Shown: positions 2,144 to 21,880, counted from the first letter of the stretch. The stretch: DNA of 35,319 nt from Candidatus Adlerbacteria bacterium RIFCSPHIGHO2_02_FULL_54_18 (GCA_001775445.1 MEWV01000002.1:1-35319); one strand, 5' to 3'. Notes: generated from the letters alone by a model not told the origin. Made by a program: numbers and translations.

Positions 2144-3412
2144 ATGAATTTCTACGACTCTATAAAAAAACAGGACAAAGAAGTTTTTGACGCTCTTGCT
2201 GGCGAGGAGGTGCGCGAGCAGGAGGGGCTGGAGCTTATCCCTTCGGAAAATTATGTCAGCCGCGCGGTGCGCGAGGCGCAGGGCTCGGTCTTGACCAACA
2301 AATACTCCGAGGGGTACCCGGGCAAGCGCTACTACGGCGGGCAGGAATTTACCGACGCGGTAGAGACGCTCGCTATCGAGCGGGCCAAAAAACTCTTTGG
2401 CGCGGCGTTTGCCAACGTCCAGGCGCACAGCGGCTCCAACGCCAATATCGCCACCTATATGGCTTTGTTGAACCCCGGCGATACTGTACTCGGGATGGAT
2501 CTCTCCCATGGCGGGCACCTCACCCATGGACATCCGGTGACCTATATCACTAAGTTCTTTAATTTTGTGCGCTACAAGATGAAGGACCCAGACACCAGCG
2601 AAATCGACTATGAGGAGATGTTGCGCGTAGCCAAGGAGCATAAGCCAAAAATCGTGCTCGCCGGCTTTTCGGCCTACAGTCGCGAGCTCGACTATCAAAA
2701 GTTTGTCGACATTGCGCGGCAGGTCGGCGCGTACAGCGTTATTGATGTCGCGCATATCGCGGGGCTTATTGCCGGCGGAGCAGTAAAAAACCCCTTCGAC
2801 TACGGCTTCGACGTGATGACCTCGACGACGCACAAAACTCTGCGCGGTCCGCGTGGCGGGCTCATTCTCACGCGCGAGTCGGAGGATATCGCCAAGCGGA
2901 TAAACAAAGCCGTCTTTCCCGGCCTCCAAGGCGGGCCGATGATGCACGTTATCGCGGCCAAGGCGGTTGCTTTTGGAGAGGCCATGCATCCGTCTTTTAA
3001 ACTATATGCTGTGCAGATACTCAAAAATGCCAAGGCGATGGAGGAGGTCTTTCGACAGGGAGGAGTGCGGATGCTCGGCGGGGGCACGAGTAACCACCTT
3101 ATCCTCGCTGACGTTTTTGGCTCGCTCGGTATCCCGGGCAAAGAAGCCGAGGTATTGCTCGACCGCGTTGGTATCACGCTCAATAAAAATGCGATTGCCG
3201 ATGACGTGCGCGGTCCTATGGACCCTTCGGGTATACGCTTTGGTACGCCAGCTGCCACCACCCGCGGGTTTAAAGAGGGGGAGTGCAAGCGCATCGCCGA
3301 GTTGATGCTCGAAGCGCTCAAAAACAGAACCGACGAGCAGAAGCTCTCTGCAATCCGCGAGGAGATCCGCACGCTCTGCCTCAAGTTTCCTGTCCCCGAC
3401 TCGTTTGTATAA
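2144..3412 (+). CDS. glyA: serine hydroxymethyltransferase
   Basis: LELIPSENYVS, the SGSNAN motif and the PLP-lysine motif TSTTHKTLRGPRGG. ORF 2072.. trimmed to the ATG at 2144 (MNFYDSIKKQD), directly after the tmk stop. Confidence 0.95.
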   Translation: MNFYDSIKKQDKEVFDALAGEEVREQEGLELIPSENYVSRAVREAQGSVLTNKYSEGYPGKRYYGGQEFTDAVETLAIERAKKLFGAAFANVQAHSGSNANIATYMALLNPGDTVLGMDLSHGGHLTHGHPVTYITKFFNFVRYKMKDPDTSEIDYEEMLRVAKEHKPKIVLAGFSAYSRELDYQKFVDIARQVGAYSVIDVAHIAGLIAGGAVKNPFDYGFDVMTSTTHKTLRGPRGGLILTRESEDIAKRINKAVFPGLQGGPMMHVIAAKAVAFGEAMHPSFKLYAVQILKNAKAMEEVFRQGGVRMLGGGTSNHLILADVFGSLGIPGKEAEVLLDRVGITLNKNAIADDVRGPMDPSGIRFGTPAATTRGFKEGECKRIAELMLEALKNRTDEQKLSAIREEIRTLCLKFPVPDSFV

Positions 3413-18398: not shown

Positions 18399-19004
18399 AT
18401 GATATACAGTGTTGGCATGGAATACCTCTCACTAGAGGAGAAGGGGGAGGGGATGGGCGACGAAGAGGTTCTTGCGGCATCGGTCAAACACCCGTCGCTC
18501 TTTGCTTTTCTTGTGCGCAAGTACGAAGAGCCGTTCCTGCGCAAGGCGCGCTCTATTGTGCGCGAGCAGGAGGCGGCAGAGGATATAGTGCAGGAGTGCT
18601 TTACTAAAATTTATCTCAATGCAGAGAAGTTTAAAAAGCAGGAAGGGGCGCAGTTTTCTTCGTGGGGCTACCGCATACTCATCAACACCGCTCTCACGCA
18701 CTATGCGCGCCACAAGCGACGCGGGCTCTCCGAGTTTGGATTGGATGAAGAAATCTGGGCGCTTATCCCCGACAAGCAGCTGCGGCAGTTTGAAAAGCGG
18801 GAACTGCAAGACCTCGTTGCCTCGGTGCTCTCCCGTATGCCGAGCTCCATGGCCCGTGCGCTCTCACTCTTTTTTATAGAGGGGAAGACGCAGGAAGAGA
18901 TAGCCGCACAAGAAGGGCTTTCGGTTGGGGCGGTTAAAACCCGGGTGCATCGCGCTAAAAAAGAATTCAAAAAAATCTACGAAACTATTACTACTAAGAG
19001 CTAG
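18399..19004 (+). CDS. RNA polymerase sigma factor, sigma-70 family (ECF-like, regions 2 and 4)
   Basis: Region 2 (AEDIVQECFTKIYLN..KF......FSSWGYRILINTA) and region 4 HTH (GKTQEEIAAQEGLSVGAVKTRVHRAKKEF). The start may instead be the ATG at 18417. Confidence 0.85.
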   Translation: MIYSVGMEYLSLEEKGEGMGDEEVLAASVKHPSLFAFLVRKYEEPFLRKARSIVREQEAAEDIVQECFTKIYLNAEKFKKQEGAQFSSWGYRILINTALTHYARHKRRGLSEFGLDEEIWALIPDKQLRQFEKRELQDLVASVLSRMPSSMARALSLFFIEGKTQEEIAAQEGLSVGAVKTRVHRAKKEFKKIYETITTKS

Positions 19005-19015
19005 TTACAAGGTAT

Positions 19016-19336
19016 ATGCAAAGCAAGATAGAACAACAGGTGATGGCTGGGGTGGGAGTGATATATGCTACCCGTCAGTTGGTAAGTGCCACTGCGCTCA
19101 AACTCTACGTCTGTGCGCTCTCGCTCTATGGGCTCGCTCAGCTGGTATGGGTCGCCCGCGTGTGGGAGAATTTCTCGCAGGTTGGGCTGCAACACTCGTT
19201 GCAGTTTGTTCTCTCGGCAGTACTGAACACCCATCTGCCGGTCCAAATCGCTCTCTCGGTGCTTATATTTGTGGGCTTCTCGTTACTCCTCGACTTCGTC
19301 CGCAGCACTTTCTCACCTCGTACACTTTCATATTAA
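19016..19336 (+). CDS. small membrane protein, possible anti-sigma partner
   Basis: 106 aa with 2-3 hydrophobic helices, 11 nt downstream of the sigma gene. The function is inferred from position only. Confidence 0.5.
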   Translation: MQSKIEQQVMAGVGVIYATRQLVSATALKLYVCALSLYGLAQLVWVARVWENFSQVGLQHSLQFVLSAVLNTHLPVQIALSVLIFVGFSLLLDFVRSTFSPRTLSY

Positions 19337-19337
19337 G

Positions 19338-19368
19338 TTGCAGAAAACCCTTATTTGTGGTATATAAT
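19338..19368 (+). promoter_or_regulatory. sigma-70-like promoter upstream of the DGR target gene
   Basis: TTGCAG (19338-19343), then a 17-nt spacer ending in tgg, then TATATA/TATAAT (19361-19368), an extended -10-like arrangement. The predicted leader is ~110 nt and ends in AAGGAG (19474-19479), 8 nt before the ATG. Confidence 0.5.
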
Positions 19369-19487
19369 TTACGTTAGTTCATTGATAGGGAATCAGCTAT
19401 TCAGCCGTAGCGAAAAGCGTCTTTAGGGGCTCTTTCCGCTGCGGCAGAACCATTCCGGTATAGCCGAGCAACCAAGGAGACATCGTC

Positions 19488-19976
19488 ATGACCGCTCAGG
19501 TCAAGAAGCTCCTGCAGTTCGTGACGACGACCAGCGTCGCCGCGATCGAGAGCTTCACGGCCGCCGACAACTTCAAGGTCGACACCAAGAAGGCGGCTAC
19601 GCGGATCTACTATCTCGGCGACAGCTTCAAGAAGCACTTCGGCCGCAAGGAAGAAGGCGCTTCGGAAGCCACTAAGATCAAGGTCCACAAGCTGCTCGAA
19701 GGGTCGCTCGACGCCCCGATCATCACGGAACTCGCCGACAAGTGCGAGATCACGCTGGGTCAGTTCTTCGCTCTGCTCTCGAAGCAAGGGAAGGGCGAGT
19801 CCGGGCCATTGCTCACCAACGGCTGGGCGAACATCGCCTACATCCGCGACGACGAGGGCAACCTCTGGGCGGTCTACGCCCACTGGAGCGCCGGCCGCAG
19901 CGGCTGGAACGTCGAGGCCAGCTCGGTCGAGTACCCGAGCGGGTGGGACGACGGCTACCAGGTCATGTCTCGCTGA
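19488..19976 (+). CDS. DGR variable (target) protein, 162 aa, C-terminal variable region
   Basis: Strong SD (AAGGAG) and GC-rich codons. The last 37 codons (LWAVYAHWSAGRSGWNVEASSVEYPSGWDDGYQVMSR) match the TR except mostly at TR adenines, and the stop codon follows the VR immediately. I see no obvious signal peptide or TM helix. Confidence 0.88.
   Translation: MTAQVKKLLQFVTTTSVAAIESFTAADNFKVDTKKAATRIYYLGDSFKKHFGRKEEGASEATKIKVHKLLEGSLDAPIITELADKCEITLGQFFALLSKQGKGESGPLLTNGWANIAYIRDDEGNLWAVYAHWSAGRSGWNVEASSVEYPSGWDDGYQVMSR
19863..19973 (+). repeat. DGR variable repeat (VR)
   Basis: 111 bp that align without gaps to 20319..20429 (offset 456). There are 97 identities and 14 mismatches, and 12 of the 14 lie at positions where the TR has A. 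Confidence 0.9.
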
Positions 19977-19986
19977 TTCTTTCGAC

Positions 19987-20018
19987 CTTAGGTACTTAGC
20001 TTCGGCTTTGAACCTAAG
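19987..20018 (+). promoter_or_regulatory. hairpin 14 nt downstream of VR (candidate DGR target-recognition hairpin)
   Basis: cttaggt (19987-19993) pairs with acctaag (20012-20018). The 18-nt loop contains agc-ttcg-gct. In characterised DGRs a hairpin or cruciform just 3' of the VR supports homing. Confidence 0.45.
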
Positions 20019-20025
20019 ACCCTTT

Positions 20026-20080
20026 GACCCTCTGTAACTTTGCACCTTTGGTGCAGGGGAGTAGAGGGTCTTTTTATTTT
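20026..20080 (+). terminator. rho-independent terminator after the DGR target gene
   Basis: Outer stem gaccctct (20026-20033) / agagggtc (20063-20070). Inner stem tgcacc (20041-20046) / ggtgca (20050-20055). It is followed by tttttatttt (20071-20080). Confidence 0.75.
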
Positions 20081-20318
20081 TGATATAGTAAAGAAGAGGA
20101 ACGCTCTGGCGTGGCGTTGTAAAAGATTCCGCGCAGCGCCTCGGGCTATCCGTACGGCCGGAATTCTGTCGGAGAAATCTTACGGGAGCGCGCATGCGGA
20201 AGTTCAAAAAAGATAAAGAATCGGTGCGCGGCGCTCTGGGACTTATAGGTCCTGTATACGATACAGCCCGGAGAGTATTCGATGGGTAGTGGAACGGATG
20301 GCGCGGCGCACGATACGA

Positions 20319-20429
20319 CTCTGGGCGGTCAACGCCAACTGGAACGCCGACAATGGCGGCTGGAACGTCGAGGCCAACTCGGTCGAGAACCCGAACAGGT
20401 GGAACGACGGCAACCAGGTCATGTCTCGC
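20319..20429 (+). repeat. DGR template repeat (TR)
   Basis: A-rich at codon-equivalent positions: 9 AAC plus 1 AAT out of 37 triplets, and 27 adenines in total. Twelve of these adenines are substituted in the VR. The reading through it (ORF 20289..20486) is not a plausible protein. Confidence 0.9.
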
Positions 20430-20456
20430 CACTCTTTTCTTTCTCCGCCCCCTGAT

Positions 20457-20810
20457 TTATTTTTCTCGGGACGGAGTTTTCGATAGCAGGCCTTTGCGCC
20501 AACCGCCGACCATTTTCCCCACGCTCTCAACGTCTGTCGCAAGCAAAATATAATGTTTTTGTTCGAGTAAGGTACATTCCCACGCTAGTTGGAGAAAGAA
20601 CCGCAGTAAGTCCGTATTTTGTAAAACTTTTCCTAGCAAGGCTATTTTTCCGTTTCCTGACGCATAGGATGCTTCCCGCAACTGTTCGAGAGCATTCAAA
20701 AAAGTGTCGTCAATCCGCTTGCCTATGCCAAACCGCTCATCGCGTGCCATGTTGCGGCGGATGGGTAGCCATAAGGTGTAAACTTTCTTCGTATGCTCAA
20801 TAACCGGCAA
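20457..20810 (-). CDS. avd: Avd-like accessory variability determinant (four-helix-bundle / 23S rRNA IVS protein family)
   Basis: 117 aa with a TTG start. The N-terminus PVIEHTKKVYTLWL and the segment LLRFFLQLAW...VESVGKMVGGWRKGL parallel, from memory, Bordetella phage bAvd (EPIEEATKCYDQML ... MLRFWLRFLAG ... AEVGRILGSWI). It lies between the TR and the RT but on the opposite strand. Confidence 0.8.
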   Translation of the reverse strand: MPVIEHTKKVYTLWLPIRRNMARDERFGIGKRIDDTFLNALEQLREASYASGNGKIALLGKVLQNTDLLRFFLQLAWECTLLEQKHYILLATDVESVGKMVGGWRKGLLSKTPSREK

Positions 20811-20821
20811 AAAATCCCTGC

Positions 20822-20829
20822 GGGGGGGG
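20822..20829 (+). repeat. G8 homopolymer in the avd-RT divergent spacer
   Basis: cGGGGGGGGt at 20821-20830, lying inside the open upstream extension of the RT reading frame. Confidence 0.95.
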
Positions 20830-20884
20830 TCGTCAAAGAAAGATTTTCGCTCATACGTATGACGATATCATTTCTGTCGAGAAT

Positions 20885-21880
20885 TTGCTCGAAGCGTGGA
20901 AGGAGTTTTTGAGGGGAAAAAAGAAGAAGCAAGATGTGCAGGAATTTCAGGCGGACCTAATACATAACATCTTGTTGCTCCACCGCGACCTAGTAGGTCT
21001 GACCTACTGCCACGATGGCTACCATCACTTCAAAATCTCCGACCCCAAGCCCCGCGATATTCACAAAGCGAGTGTCCGCGACCGCCTGCTCCACCACGCG
21101 CTCTACCAGCAACTTTATCCGTTTTTTGACCGAACGTTTGTTGCTGACTCATATTCTTGCCGAATAGGGAAGGGCACGCATAAAGCTATGAATCAATTCC
21201 GGCACTTTGCCTATCAAGTTTCCAAAAATCACACCCGTACAGCGTGGGTACTCAAATGCGACATCCGCAAGTTTTTTGCCTCAATAGACCATCAAATTCT
21301 CTTTGCGATATTGGAACGTTCCATACCAGAACAAAATATTTTCAATCTTTTGCGCGAGGTGGTCAGTAGCTTCTGTTCCTGTTGTAGGATAAAAAACAAC
21401 ATATACCACTACTCTCCGGTCGGAGAATACAAGTGTATGCGTAAAGGTTTGCCATTAGGAAACCTCACGAGCCAGCTTTTAGTAAATGTCTACATGAACG
21501 AGTTCGACCAGTACGTTAAGCATAAACTTAAGGTCGAGTACTACGCCCGGTACGCGGACGACTTTGTGTTGTTGTCGCACAACAAGCAAGAGCTGGAACA
21601 AGCACTCCGAAAATCGCTAGTATTTCTACAAGGTAGATTAAAACTAGAGCTACATCCCGACAAGGTGTTCATCAAGACATTTGCCTCCGGTGTGGATTTC
21701 CTCGGCTGGGTGCACTTTGCCGACCATCGCGTGCTACGCACCAGCTCCAAACAGAGGATGTTGCGACGTACCCATGGGTTGGAAGAAGAGAGCTCCATAG
21801 TCCAATCGTATCTGGGTTTACTTTCACACGGGAACGCAGAGAAGCTGCATCAAAAAGTTAGGAGTGATTACAAACTCTAA
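20885..21880 (+). CDS. DGR-type reverse transcriptase
   Basis: SYSCRIGKGTHKA, KCDIRKFFASIDH, LPLGNLTSQLLVNVYMNEFD (the I/LGxxxSQ motif diagnostic for DGR RTs), YARYADDFVLL and GVDFLGW. TTG start as in the ORF track. RT-like residues (YDDIISVEN) continue upstream of it in frame without a canonical start codon. Confidence 0.9.
   Translation: MLEAWKEFLRGKKKKQDVQEFQADLIHNILLLHRDLVGLTYCHDGYHHFKISDPKPRDIHKASVRDRLLHHALYQQLYPFFDRTFVADSYSCRIGKGTHKAMNQFRHFAYQVSKNHTRTAWVLKCDIRKFFASIDHQILFAILERSIPEQNIFNLLREVVSSFCSCCRIKNNIYHYSPVGEYKCMRKGLPLGNLTSQLLVNVYMNEFDQYVKHKLKVEYYARYADDFVLLSHNKQELEQALRKSLVFLQGRLKLELHPDKVFIKTFASGVDFLGWVHFADHRVLRTSSKQRMLRRTHGLEEESSIVQSYLGLLSHGNAEKLHQKVRSDYKL

Follow-up and report, generated by a model that had tools for sequence, protein, structure and literature searches.

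The locus described here raises two questions: whether a pair of near-identical repeats beside a reverse transcriptase (RT) gene forms a diversity-generating retroelement (DGR), and what might set the expression of the enzyme that would drive its mutagenesis. The locus lies in a 35,319-nt stretch of DNA from Candidatus Adlerbacteria bacterium RIFCSPHIGHO2_02_FULL_54_18, which was analyzed at its full length and is called the window; coordinates count from its first letter. It combines a template repeat (TR) and a variable repeat (VR) whose differences are biased to adenines, an RT of the DGR clade, a VR with AAY codons at the 3' end of a target gene, and an Avd gene. The locus is very probably a chromosomal DGR of the type carried by Patescibacteria, the Candidate Phyla Radiation (CPR), with the layout VR, TR, reverse-strand avd and RT. 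A poly-G tract between avd and the RT gene offers a possible answer to the second question, which we put forward tentatively.

An adenine-biased repeat pair and a DGR-type reverse transcriptase

Gapless alignment was used to compare the two repeats. The VR (19863-19973, plus strand) and the TR (20319-20429, plus strand) align over 111 nt with 14 mismatches, 12 of them at TR adenines. The TR is composed of 27 A, 34 C, 36 G and 14 T, and the hypergeometric probability of 12 or more of 14 mismatches falling on A is P = 3e-7. Codon position 1 or 2 is affected by all 12 adenine-site changes. The ten in-frame AAY codons of the TR (nine AAC and one AAT) are read in the VR as Tyr, His, Ser, Arg, Asn, Ser, Tyr, Ser, Asp and Tyr. 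The VR makes up the final 37 sense codons of a 162-aa open reading frame (ORF), with the stop codon directly after. These results agree with an earlier note on this DNA, which had claimed an adenine-specific mismatch pattern, ten AAY triplets read as varied codons, and a VR at the end of the 162-aa ORF. No further VR copy was found when both strands of the window were searched. The 3'-terminal 17 nt are the same in VR and TR, including three unmutated adenines, and the flanks beyond them differ. A check of this boundary, the initiation of mutagenic homing (IMH/IMH*) region, showed hairpins 3' of the VR and a hairpin, probably a terminator, 3' of the TR as well. Mean fold energy is equal for the two 70-nt segments that follow the VR and the TR.

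The RT was compared with solved structures and curated family models. It matches Pfam RVT_1 and carries the [I/L]GxxxSQ and YxDD signatures of DGR RTs as LGNLTSQ (21455-21475) and YADD (21551-21562). The closest solved relative is the Bordetella phage BPP-1 DGR RT (8ub7, E 2e-38); group II intron and retron-type RTs come next in the PDB at E ~3e-15. NCBIfam holds no curated DGR-RT model, and the window RT falls far under the cut-off of every NCBIfam RT model (group II, Drt, retron, Abi). The top match is TIGR04416 (group II intron RT/maturase) at 132.9 bits against a cut-off of 300, and the retron St85 model gives 59.9 bits against 235. The clade around the window RT holds more than 7900 proteins at E<=1e-60. 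A DGR-type RT with these two motifs had been claimed from the sequence and is confirmed, the listed ORF (20885-21880, plus strand, TTG start) beginning 455 nt past the TR end. Grouping with group II intron or retron RTs, named earlier as the outcome that would speak against a DGR, is not what the PDB comparison shows.

The avd gene encodes 117 aa from a TTG start (20457-20810, minus strand) and sits antisense between the TR and the RT gene, divergent from the latter. It is identified by its ORF and by matches to PF22296 and NF033474 (DivGenRetAVD), the latter covering model positions 1-104 of 104 (E 4.6e-17). A minus-strand Avd match upstream of the RT is present in 75 of 80 related loci. The earlier note was right about a 117-aa Avd gene between TR and RT; that it lies on the minus strand had gone unmentioned. 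A PDB sequence search with Avd gave no useful match, and an exact-protein look-up of the 117-aa form is empty because gene callers use a shorter 97-aa form. The TTG start is at 20808-20810 on the minus strand, and the TTGCC(G/A)G start region is kept in relatives; avd seems from these sequences to use a weak start codon. A Shine-Dalgarno-like AGGGA/AGGAG for avd touches the poly-C side of the G tract described below.

The element has the layout of CPR retroelements

DGRs of CPR and DPANN genomes were reportedly first surveyed by Paul et al. in 2017. When one genome per species was scanned, at least 570 loci proved to encode RTs related to the window RT, and the relatives analyzed are the best 80 of these (RT identity 58-73%), nearly all from Patescibacteria metagenome-assembled genomes. 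A TR/VR pair is detectable in 65 of the 80, and the order is VR, TR, reverse-strand avd, RT in all 65. The VR-TR spacing in related loci is ~300-390 nt. Summed over the 65 loci, TR adenines take 1098 of 1173 VR/TR mismatches (94%); lack of such a bias at homologous loci had been listed beforehand as a ground for rejecting the DGR. Two relatives carry additional repeats: L058 has one TR with two VRs (632-731 and 1624-1724), and L065 has a second TR/VR pair downstream of the RT (5009-5151/5791-5933).

The window shows a TR, a reverse-strand avd and an RT in a CPR host, which is the B3 "TR-(avd)-RT" architecture found in 90% of the CPR DGR set and almost nowhere else (Wu et al. 2018, PMC5758913). 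Such elements form the CPR-restricted DGR clade 2, whose targets have no recognizable domains (Roux et al. 2021, PMC8144416). The window element shares with CPR B3 DGRs the gene order, the orientation, the Patescibacteria host and a small domain-less target with a C-terminal VR, and its core differs from them in nothing. The element itself is ordinary because its layout is the published CPR type, and as a DGR it adds little, since DGRs with this layout are already known to abound in CPR genomes and the genome at hand became public in 2016. Neither PMC5758913, in the article without its supplements, nor PMC8144416 mentions an avd-RT repeat tract, a 5' RNA domain or a fold for the target family.

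A poly-G tract between avd and the RT gene

A run of eight G (G8; 20822-20829) sits between the divergent avd and RT genes and is the sole G run of 7 or longer in the 35-kb window. Assemblies of the same strain were compared with the window. They are >=99.97% identical over 6.5 kb, and tract length (G8, G9 or G10) is their only indel; these lengths are those of assembly consensus sequences, not of reads. G8 occurs in the window and L087. G9 occurs in L081/L090, which are one contig, and in L091; the 362-aa RT has seven further places. G10 is found in L082/L088, again one contig, and in L086 and L089, and contig L083 stops just ahead of the tract. Across the assemblies, no length change affects the A7, T7 and T8 runs of that 6.5 kb.

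The organism has another DGR (RT A3D70_00445, L092-L107), in which seven contigs show G9 and the nine retrieved of the ten contigs with the other form show G10; each tract length brings a different upstream ATG into frame (367 or 345 aa). This second DGR has the same layout and adjoins a PG_binding_1/GH18 gene. The third locus, P0227, has G9, G10 and G11 in four, four and two contigs, and its RT protein is unaltered. Tract length varies within a lineage at three DGR loci at the level of assembly consensus, the hallmark by which contingency loci are recognized.

The position of the tract is conserved across the clade. Of the 77 related loci, 69 carry a run of 6-13 G (mostly 8-11) upstream of the conserved RT N-terminus, at a distance of no more than 90 nt, and the remaining 570 kb of the related loci contain only seven G/C runs of 7 or longer. 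Seven of the other eight loci carry (GT)n, (GA)n, (GATT)n or poly-C at the tract position (one of the seven, L012, adjoins a run of N), and poly-G or another simple repeat is present at that position in 76 of 77. A repeat as such is favored over a G-specific motif because other repeats occupy the same position in these seven loci. The comparisons indicate that the tract is likely a real conserved, length-unstable repeat.

The 70 loci with a tract have two layouts. In type I (36 of 70) an ATG follows the tract. The tract abuts a TAnnnT hexamer in 18 of these 36 loci against a background of 2.6%, and the ATG of those 18 is 6-10 nt on in 17 and exactly 7 nt on in 12. A -35-like hexamer, the choice of which was pattern-guided, lies 5-10 nt upstream of the tract, and its spacer to the -10-like hexamer measures 16-18 nt in 15 of the 18. 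This arrangement is suggestive of a type I tract that fills the promoter spacer between the two hexamers. In type II (34 of 70, the window included) the tract abuts the conserved N-terminal codons with no ATG between. A nearby in-frame TTG or GTG is present in 9 of the 34 type II loci and an upstream ATG in the RT frame in 7 of the 34, a count that fails to separate genes that are mostly OFF from genes in which the upstream ATG is irrelevant.

Tract length also bears on the RT start that can be assigned in the window. The RT gene spans 20793-21880 (plus strand) as assigned here from its ORF, motifs and homology. Homology to the Bordetella RT starts at 20852 (HTYDDIISVENLL), upstream of the listed TTG at 20885; the frame and motifs of the ORF as listed earlier hold, and its TTG start falls inside the N-terminal homology. 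Only in the G9 version does an ATG at 20793 join the RT frame, to give a 362-aa protein; at G8, as in the window, the RT is out of frame with this sole upstream ATG. The window has AAG at 20840-20842, where the P0227 locus has ATG. An ATT at 20843 lies 13 nt past the tract, a spacing equal to that of the ATG in type I loci, and RT translation may begin at this ATT, in which case the tract-dependent frame would be irrelevant. Published gene calls for this one RT give 362 aa on nine contigs and 331, 323 or 314 aa on ten. RTs of the clade are annotated at inconsistent lengths because half of the RT genes have no canonical start near the conserved N-terminus.

The tract was compared with known contingency loci: the poly-G/C in the promoters of Neisseria porA/opc, the G8-G13 runs of Campylobacter jejuni, and the TA repeats in the divergent promoters of Haemophilus hifA/hifB. 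The DGR tracts share with these a G/C homopolymer of 7-13 nt located early in an ORF or between the -35-like and -10-like hexamers of divergent genes, a length that differs among otherwise identical genomes, and other repeat types at the same site in relatives. They differ in that the repeat precedes a mutator enzyme, the DGR RT, rather than a surface structure. The tract lies where a contingency repeat could vary the RT, and possibly avd, in phase or in level, and we infer that its length may set RT (perhaps avd) expression. Slippage during transcription rather than in the DNA may be what matters. The wider proposal, which we hold to be possible but short of probable, is that the DGR mutator of this CPR clade is gated by a hypermutable repeat, with slippage turning the RT (perhaps also Avd) on, off, up or down through reading frame here and promoter spacing elsewhere, a form of two-tier bet-hedging. 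If true, only a subpopulation would hypermutate the target protein, and control of the RT by repeat length would explain, simply and testably, how hypermutation is regulated in thousands of CPR elements. A literature search found no paper linking DGRs to such repeats.

A candidate RNA gene that contains the TR

The sequence between the VR and avd points to a small RNA gene of its own for the TR, with a promoter, a structured 5' domain and a terminator; the transcript ends are inferred. An extended -10 promoter, TGaTATAGT (20081-20089, plus strand), is assigned a putative function by conservation, the block tTTTg.TA.AaTa being conserved at this position in 31 loci. A single-sequence fold of the whole putative RNA is uninformative (z = -0.5), and structure was taken from alignments instead. 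The 5' domain (20113-20311) has 37 pairs in five helices (20113-20133; 20164-20187; 20224-20235 with 20300-20311; 20239-20252; 20266-20269 with 20284-20287), and compensatory changes occur at 33 of the pairs. The alignment has 95.4% of cells paired against 39-54% with slid partners and a covariation score of 0.79 against <=0.19; the observed values were reached by none of 500 shuffles. The RNA is assigned to the plus strand because G-U pairs are frequent. The 12-bp helix 20224-20235/20300-20311 closes the domain 7 nt ahead of the TR. A pairing of GAGAGT in the 5' domain with ACTCTC just after the TR was also considered and was dropped, as it has no compensatory changes in the alignments.

A covariance model, R1, was built on the TR-proximal 103 nt of the domain. 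Of 85 sources, 74 have one R1 match per locus and L069 has two weak ones (75 of 85 in total), the second of which is at 2998-3107. The matches are always on the plus strand and end just before the TR; they include ~50 loci outside the training set as well as the A3D70_00445 and P0227 DGR loci. No further matches appeared in 640 kb at E<=0.01. No Rfam 15 family matches the 5' domain, including any of the RT-1 to RT-19 motifs of Weinberg et al. 2017 that the database contains. At gathering thresholds the whole window matches no Rfam family, and no tRNA, group II intron or retron RNA is found. The sole Rfam match in a permissive scan of 19300-21000 is mir-454, which was judged to be chance. R1 provides a searchable signature for the RNA that the CPR enzymes may recognize and defines a transcript for reconstitution.

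The TR is followed by a conserved tail (20430-20480, plus strand) with a GC hairpin (20443-20476) and UUUU, which is by fold and alignment the probable terminator of the DGR RNA. The consensus after the TR is CAACTCTCTTCATTTCTC, followed by a hairpin and a T-run, in 31 loci. This terminator region overlaps the avd 3' end on the opposite strand. Two more hairpins precede the RNA gene. The DNA fold of 19950-20090 has z = -3.95, and two hairpins after the VR are present in 10 of the 12 related loci whose folds were inspected. The first hairpin (19987-20018, plus strand) is a candidate target-recognition (cruciform) element. The second, a GC-rich hairpin plus T-run (20026-20081, plus strand), is from its fold and its relatives the probable intrinsic terminator of the target gene; it went unflagged in a strict terminator scan, for which internal loops in the stem are the probable reason.

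The target protein and its variable residues

The target gene (19488-19976, plus strand) encodes the 162-aa variable protein, a 100% match to hypothetical protein A3D70_01180 of Candidatus Adlerbacteria. Its putative promoter (19338-19368, plus strand), read from the sequence as TTGCAG, ~17 nt and TATATAAT, was not flagged by a strict consensus scan. The promoter is followed by a 5' untranslated region with an AAGGAG Shine-Dalgarno sequence 8 nt ahead of the ATG. Pfam and NCBIfam contain no domain that matches the protein, which is small, lacks a transmembrane segment and has its VR at the C-terminus. The family numbers 3356 clusters at 50% identity (E<=1e-3), with a conserved core of ~160 aa, the C-terminal VR, and N-terminal extensions that vary. 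In sister strain L087 the target (protein P0005) agrees fully with that of the window in the VR and throughout its C-terminal two-thirds, but it has a different, longer N-terminus (209 aa in total; 32 of 125 aligned residues differ), which suggests recombination that swaps N-terminal modules of the target. The family profile matches the 926-aa protein P0062 at five distinct places, which looks like a tandem fusion of five target domains or a merger of several ORFs.

AlphaFold2 was used to model the target. The full-length model has a predicted local distance difference test score (pLDDT) of 91.6 and a predicted template modeling score (pTM) of 0.89, and the model of residues 55-162 has a pLDDT of 88.0 and a pTM of 0.81. 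The earlier note had suggested a C-type-lectin-like fold for the 162-aa protein; structure prediction and Foldseek gave no match to one. Foldseek of the models against the PDB and BFVD returned nothing at E<=0.001 (best E 0.26), with query-length-normalized TM-scores of <=0.37, and PDB sequence searches with a single sequence and with a profile gave no useful match; the PDB includes known DGR variable proteins. The C-type lectin/FGE-sulfatase fold of the Mtd, TvpA, AvpA and TaqVP type is not found in the target. Residues 62-161 have the element order beta-alpha-alpha-beta-beta-beta-beta, which is compatible with a minimal C-type-lectin topology, and Foldseek can miss strongly divergent fold variants. 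A C-type lectin fold in the modeled target is best described as not detected rather than excluded, and the scaffold may be other than a C-type lectin. VRs of CPR elements have been called "UVR" or presumed to be an undiscovered C-type-lectin variant (PMC5758913, PMC8144416). The target family, with its 3356 clusters, confident models and no lectin match, bears on whether C-type lectin folds are universal among DGR targets. The variable residues alternate on the last three strands (130/132/134, 141/143/145 and 149-157), a pattern in the model that fits one exposed sheet face.

Sixty target homologues were aligned for positional entropy. VR codons templated by A at position 1 or 2 have a mean entropy of 2.72 bits, against 0.55 bits for other VR positions and 1.18 bits for the rest of the protein (P=2.6e-7); homologue variability in the VR is confined to the A-templated codons. 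Allele P0002 differs from the window target at 3 of 125 residues outside the VR and at 15 of 37 inside it, 13 of which are A-templated. The family entropy pattern and P0002 are indirect lines of evidence for recent VR diversification.

Proposed mechanism and comparison with the BPP-1 element

The scheme proposed for this element draws mostly on analogy with the Bordetella phage BPP-1 DGR. The promoter at ~20081-20089 would give a ~385-nt noncoding RNA that consists of the structured 5' domain, the 111-nt TR and the terminator. RT and Avd, produced from their divergent genes, would reverse-transcribe the TR with misincorporation at template adenines, and the resulting cDNA would take the place of the VR in the target gene's 3' end. 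Two features, the 17-nt block that is identical at both repeat ends and the hairpin after the VR, would define how far replacement extends in the 3' direction. The predicted outcome is the re-randomization of ~17 codons that alternate along three C-terminal beta-strands of the target.

The window element shares with the BPP-1 DGR (mtd-avd-TR-brt) the adenine-specific flow from TR to VR, the RT family with its IGxxxSQ-type motif, Avd, the C-terminal VR, repeat 3' ends that are identical, and a hairpin 3' of the VR; in the window a probable terminator hairpin also follows the TR. Unlike in BPP-1, the avd gene of the window is placed on the opposite strand in the interval from TR to RT, and the TR RNA seems to be transcribed as a unit of its own, ended by its own terminator. 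The host is a cell and not a phage, and the target is no phage tail fiber and gave no C-type lectin match. The structured RNA of the window element is 5' of the TR, whereas the essential structured spacer RNA of the Bordetella element is said to lie 3' of the TR, as reportedly described by Handa et al. in 2018. If the 5' domain has the role proposed for it, its placement would be a real difference in RNA organization.

Weighing the alternatives

Several observations weigh against the interpretation given above. The Avd scores are under the curated cut-offs (62.2 against 80 bits for NF033474 and 39.3 against 40 for PF22296). Two VR/TR differences, the neighbors T20354>C and G20355>A, are not at adenines. 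The VR is identical in every same-strain assembly that was found through the RT and retains the VR; its identity in 18 of 18 contigs with the exact target protein follows from the retrieval of those contigs by that protein. In the G8 sequence of the window, the RT frame has no ATG, GTG or TTG from its stop at 20801 until the TTG at 20885. A generic scan of 19250-21000 for a sigma-70 promoter plus terminator had no match, so the promoter and terminator assignments rest on conservation, and the transcript boundaries are those of conserved motifs only. In the target, no C-type lectin fold and no signal peptide domain was detected, and it has no known function; the missing lectin match leaves the DGR call unaffected.

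Three other explanations were set against these data. An ordinary partial gene duplication beside an unrelated group II intron or retron RT, with the adenine bias arising by chance, would fit the group II intron RT/maturase model being the top NCBIfam match. That match is far short of its 300-bit cut-off, the window contains no group II intron or retron RNA family, the RT is much nearer to the BPP-1 DGR RT than to other RT classes, and the adenine bias (P=3e-7) recurs in 65 loci; we give this explanation practically no weight. The identification of the RT as that of a group II intron or retron is refuted by the absence of a ribozyme or msr/msd RNA and by scores below the family models. A decaying, inactive remnant that has lost its RT start and whose VR is frozen would fit several observations: the G8 window without an in-frame start before the conserved RT N-terminus, the AAG at the position of the P0227 ATG, the uniform VR of the same-strain assemblies and the two substitutions off adenines. 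However, the 1-kb RT frame is otherwise intact with its catalytic motifs kept, the G9 assemblies restore the 362-aa ORF on nine contigs, and a near-identical allele (P0002) has a re-diversified VR. The layout with no nearby ATG is moreover shared by 34 of 70 related loci that still show clean adenine-specific VR/TR differences. Decay is improbable on this evidence.

The more serious challenge is to the proposed role of the tract, which could instead be a fixed G-rich element of a ribosome-binding site or promoter whose G8, G9 and G10 forms are sequencing or assembly errors and whose length has no regulatory meaning. Long G runs concentrate Illumina and assembler errors, contig L083 breaks off just before the tract, and the same reads may underlie some of the assemblies. 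The frames also fit a random pattern, with 7 of the 34 loci that lack a nearby ATG having an upstream ATG in frame; the P0227 RT protein is the same at every tract length, and the ATT at 20843, 13 nt after the tract, has the spacing of the type I ATG. On the other side, the consensus lengths differ among k141-named contigs (the same assembler naming style) from different analyses, and they vary at three separate loci (8/9/10, 9/10 and 9/10/11) while the A7, T7 and T8 runs of the same 6.5 kb stay constant. Replacement of the tract by (GT)n, (GA)n, (GATT)n or poly-C at the same position in seven loci does not favor a fixed G-rich element, and neither does the junction with TAnnnT in 18 of 36 type I loci (background 2.6%) with a spacer that is mostly 16-18 nt. 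We regard the fixed-element explanation as rather unlikely, and gating of the RT by a hypermutable repeat stays the tentative proposal.

Genomic neighborhood

The earlier note placed a sigma-factor pair upstream of the element. This description does not hold, as the region has one sigma-70-family gene (18399-19004) and a 106-aa ORF (19016-19336, plus strand) that has no Pfam match and is not a second sigma factor. The 106-aa product is hydrophobic by eye and may be an anti-sigma or membrane partner. The GC content within 19400-21800 is 59-62% in the target gene and 44-49% in avd and the RT gene, and the flanks are at 52-58%.

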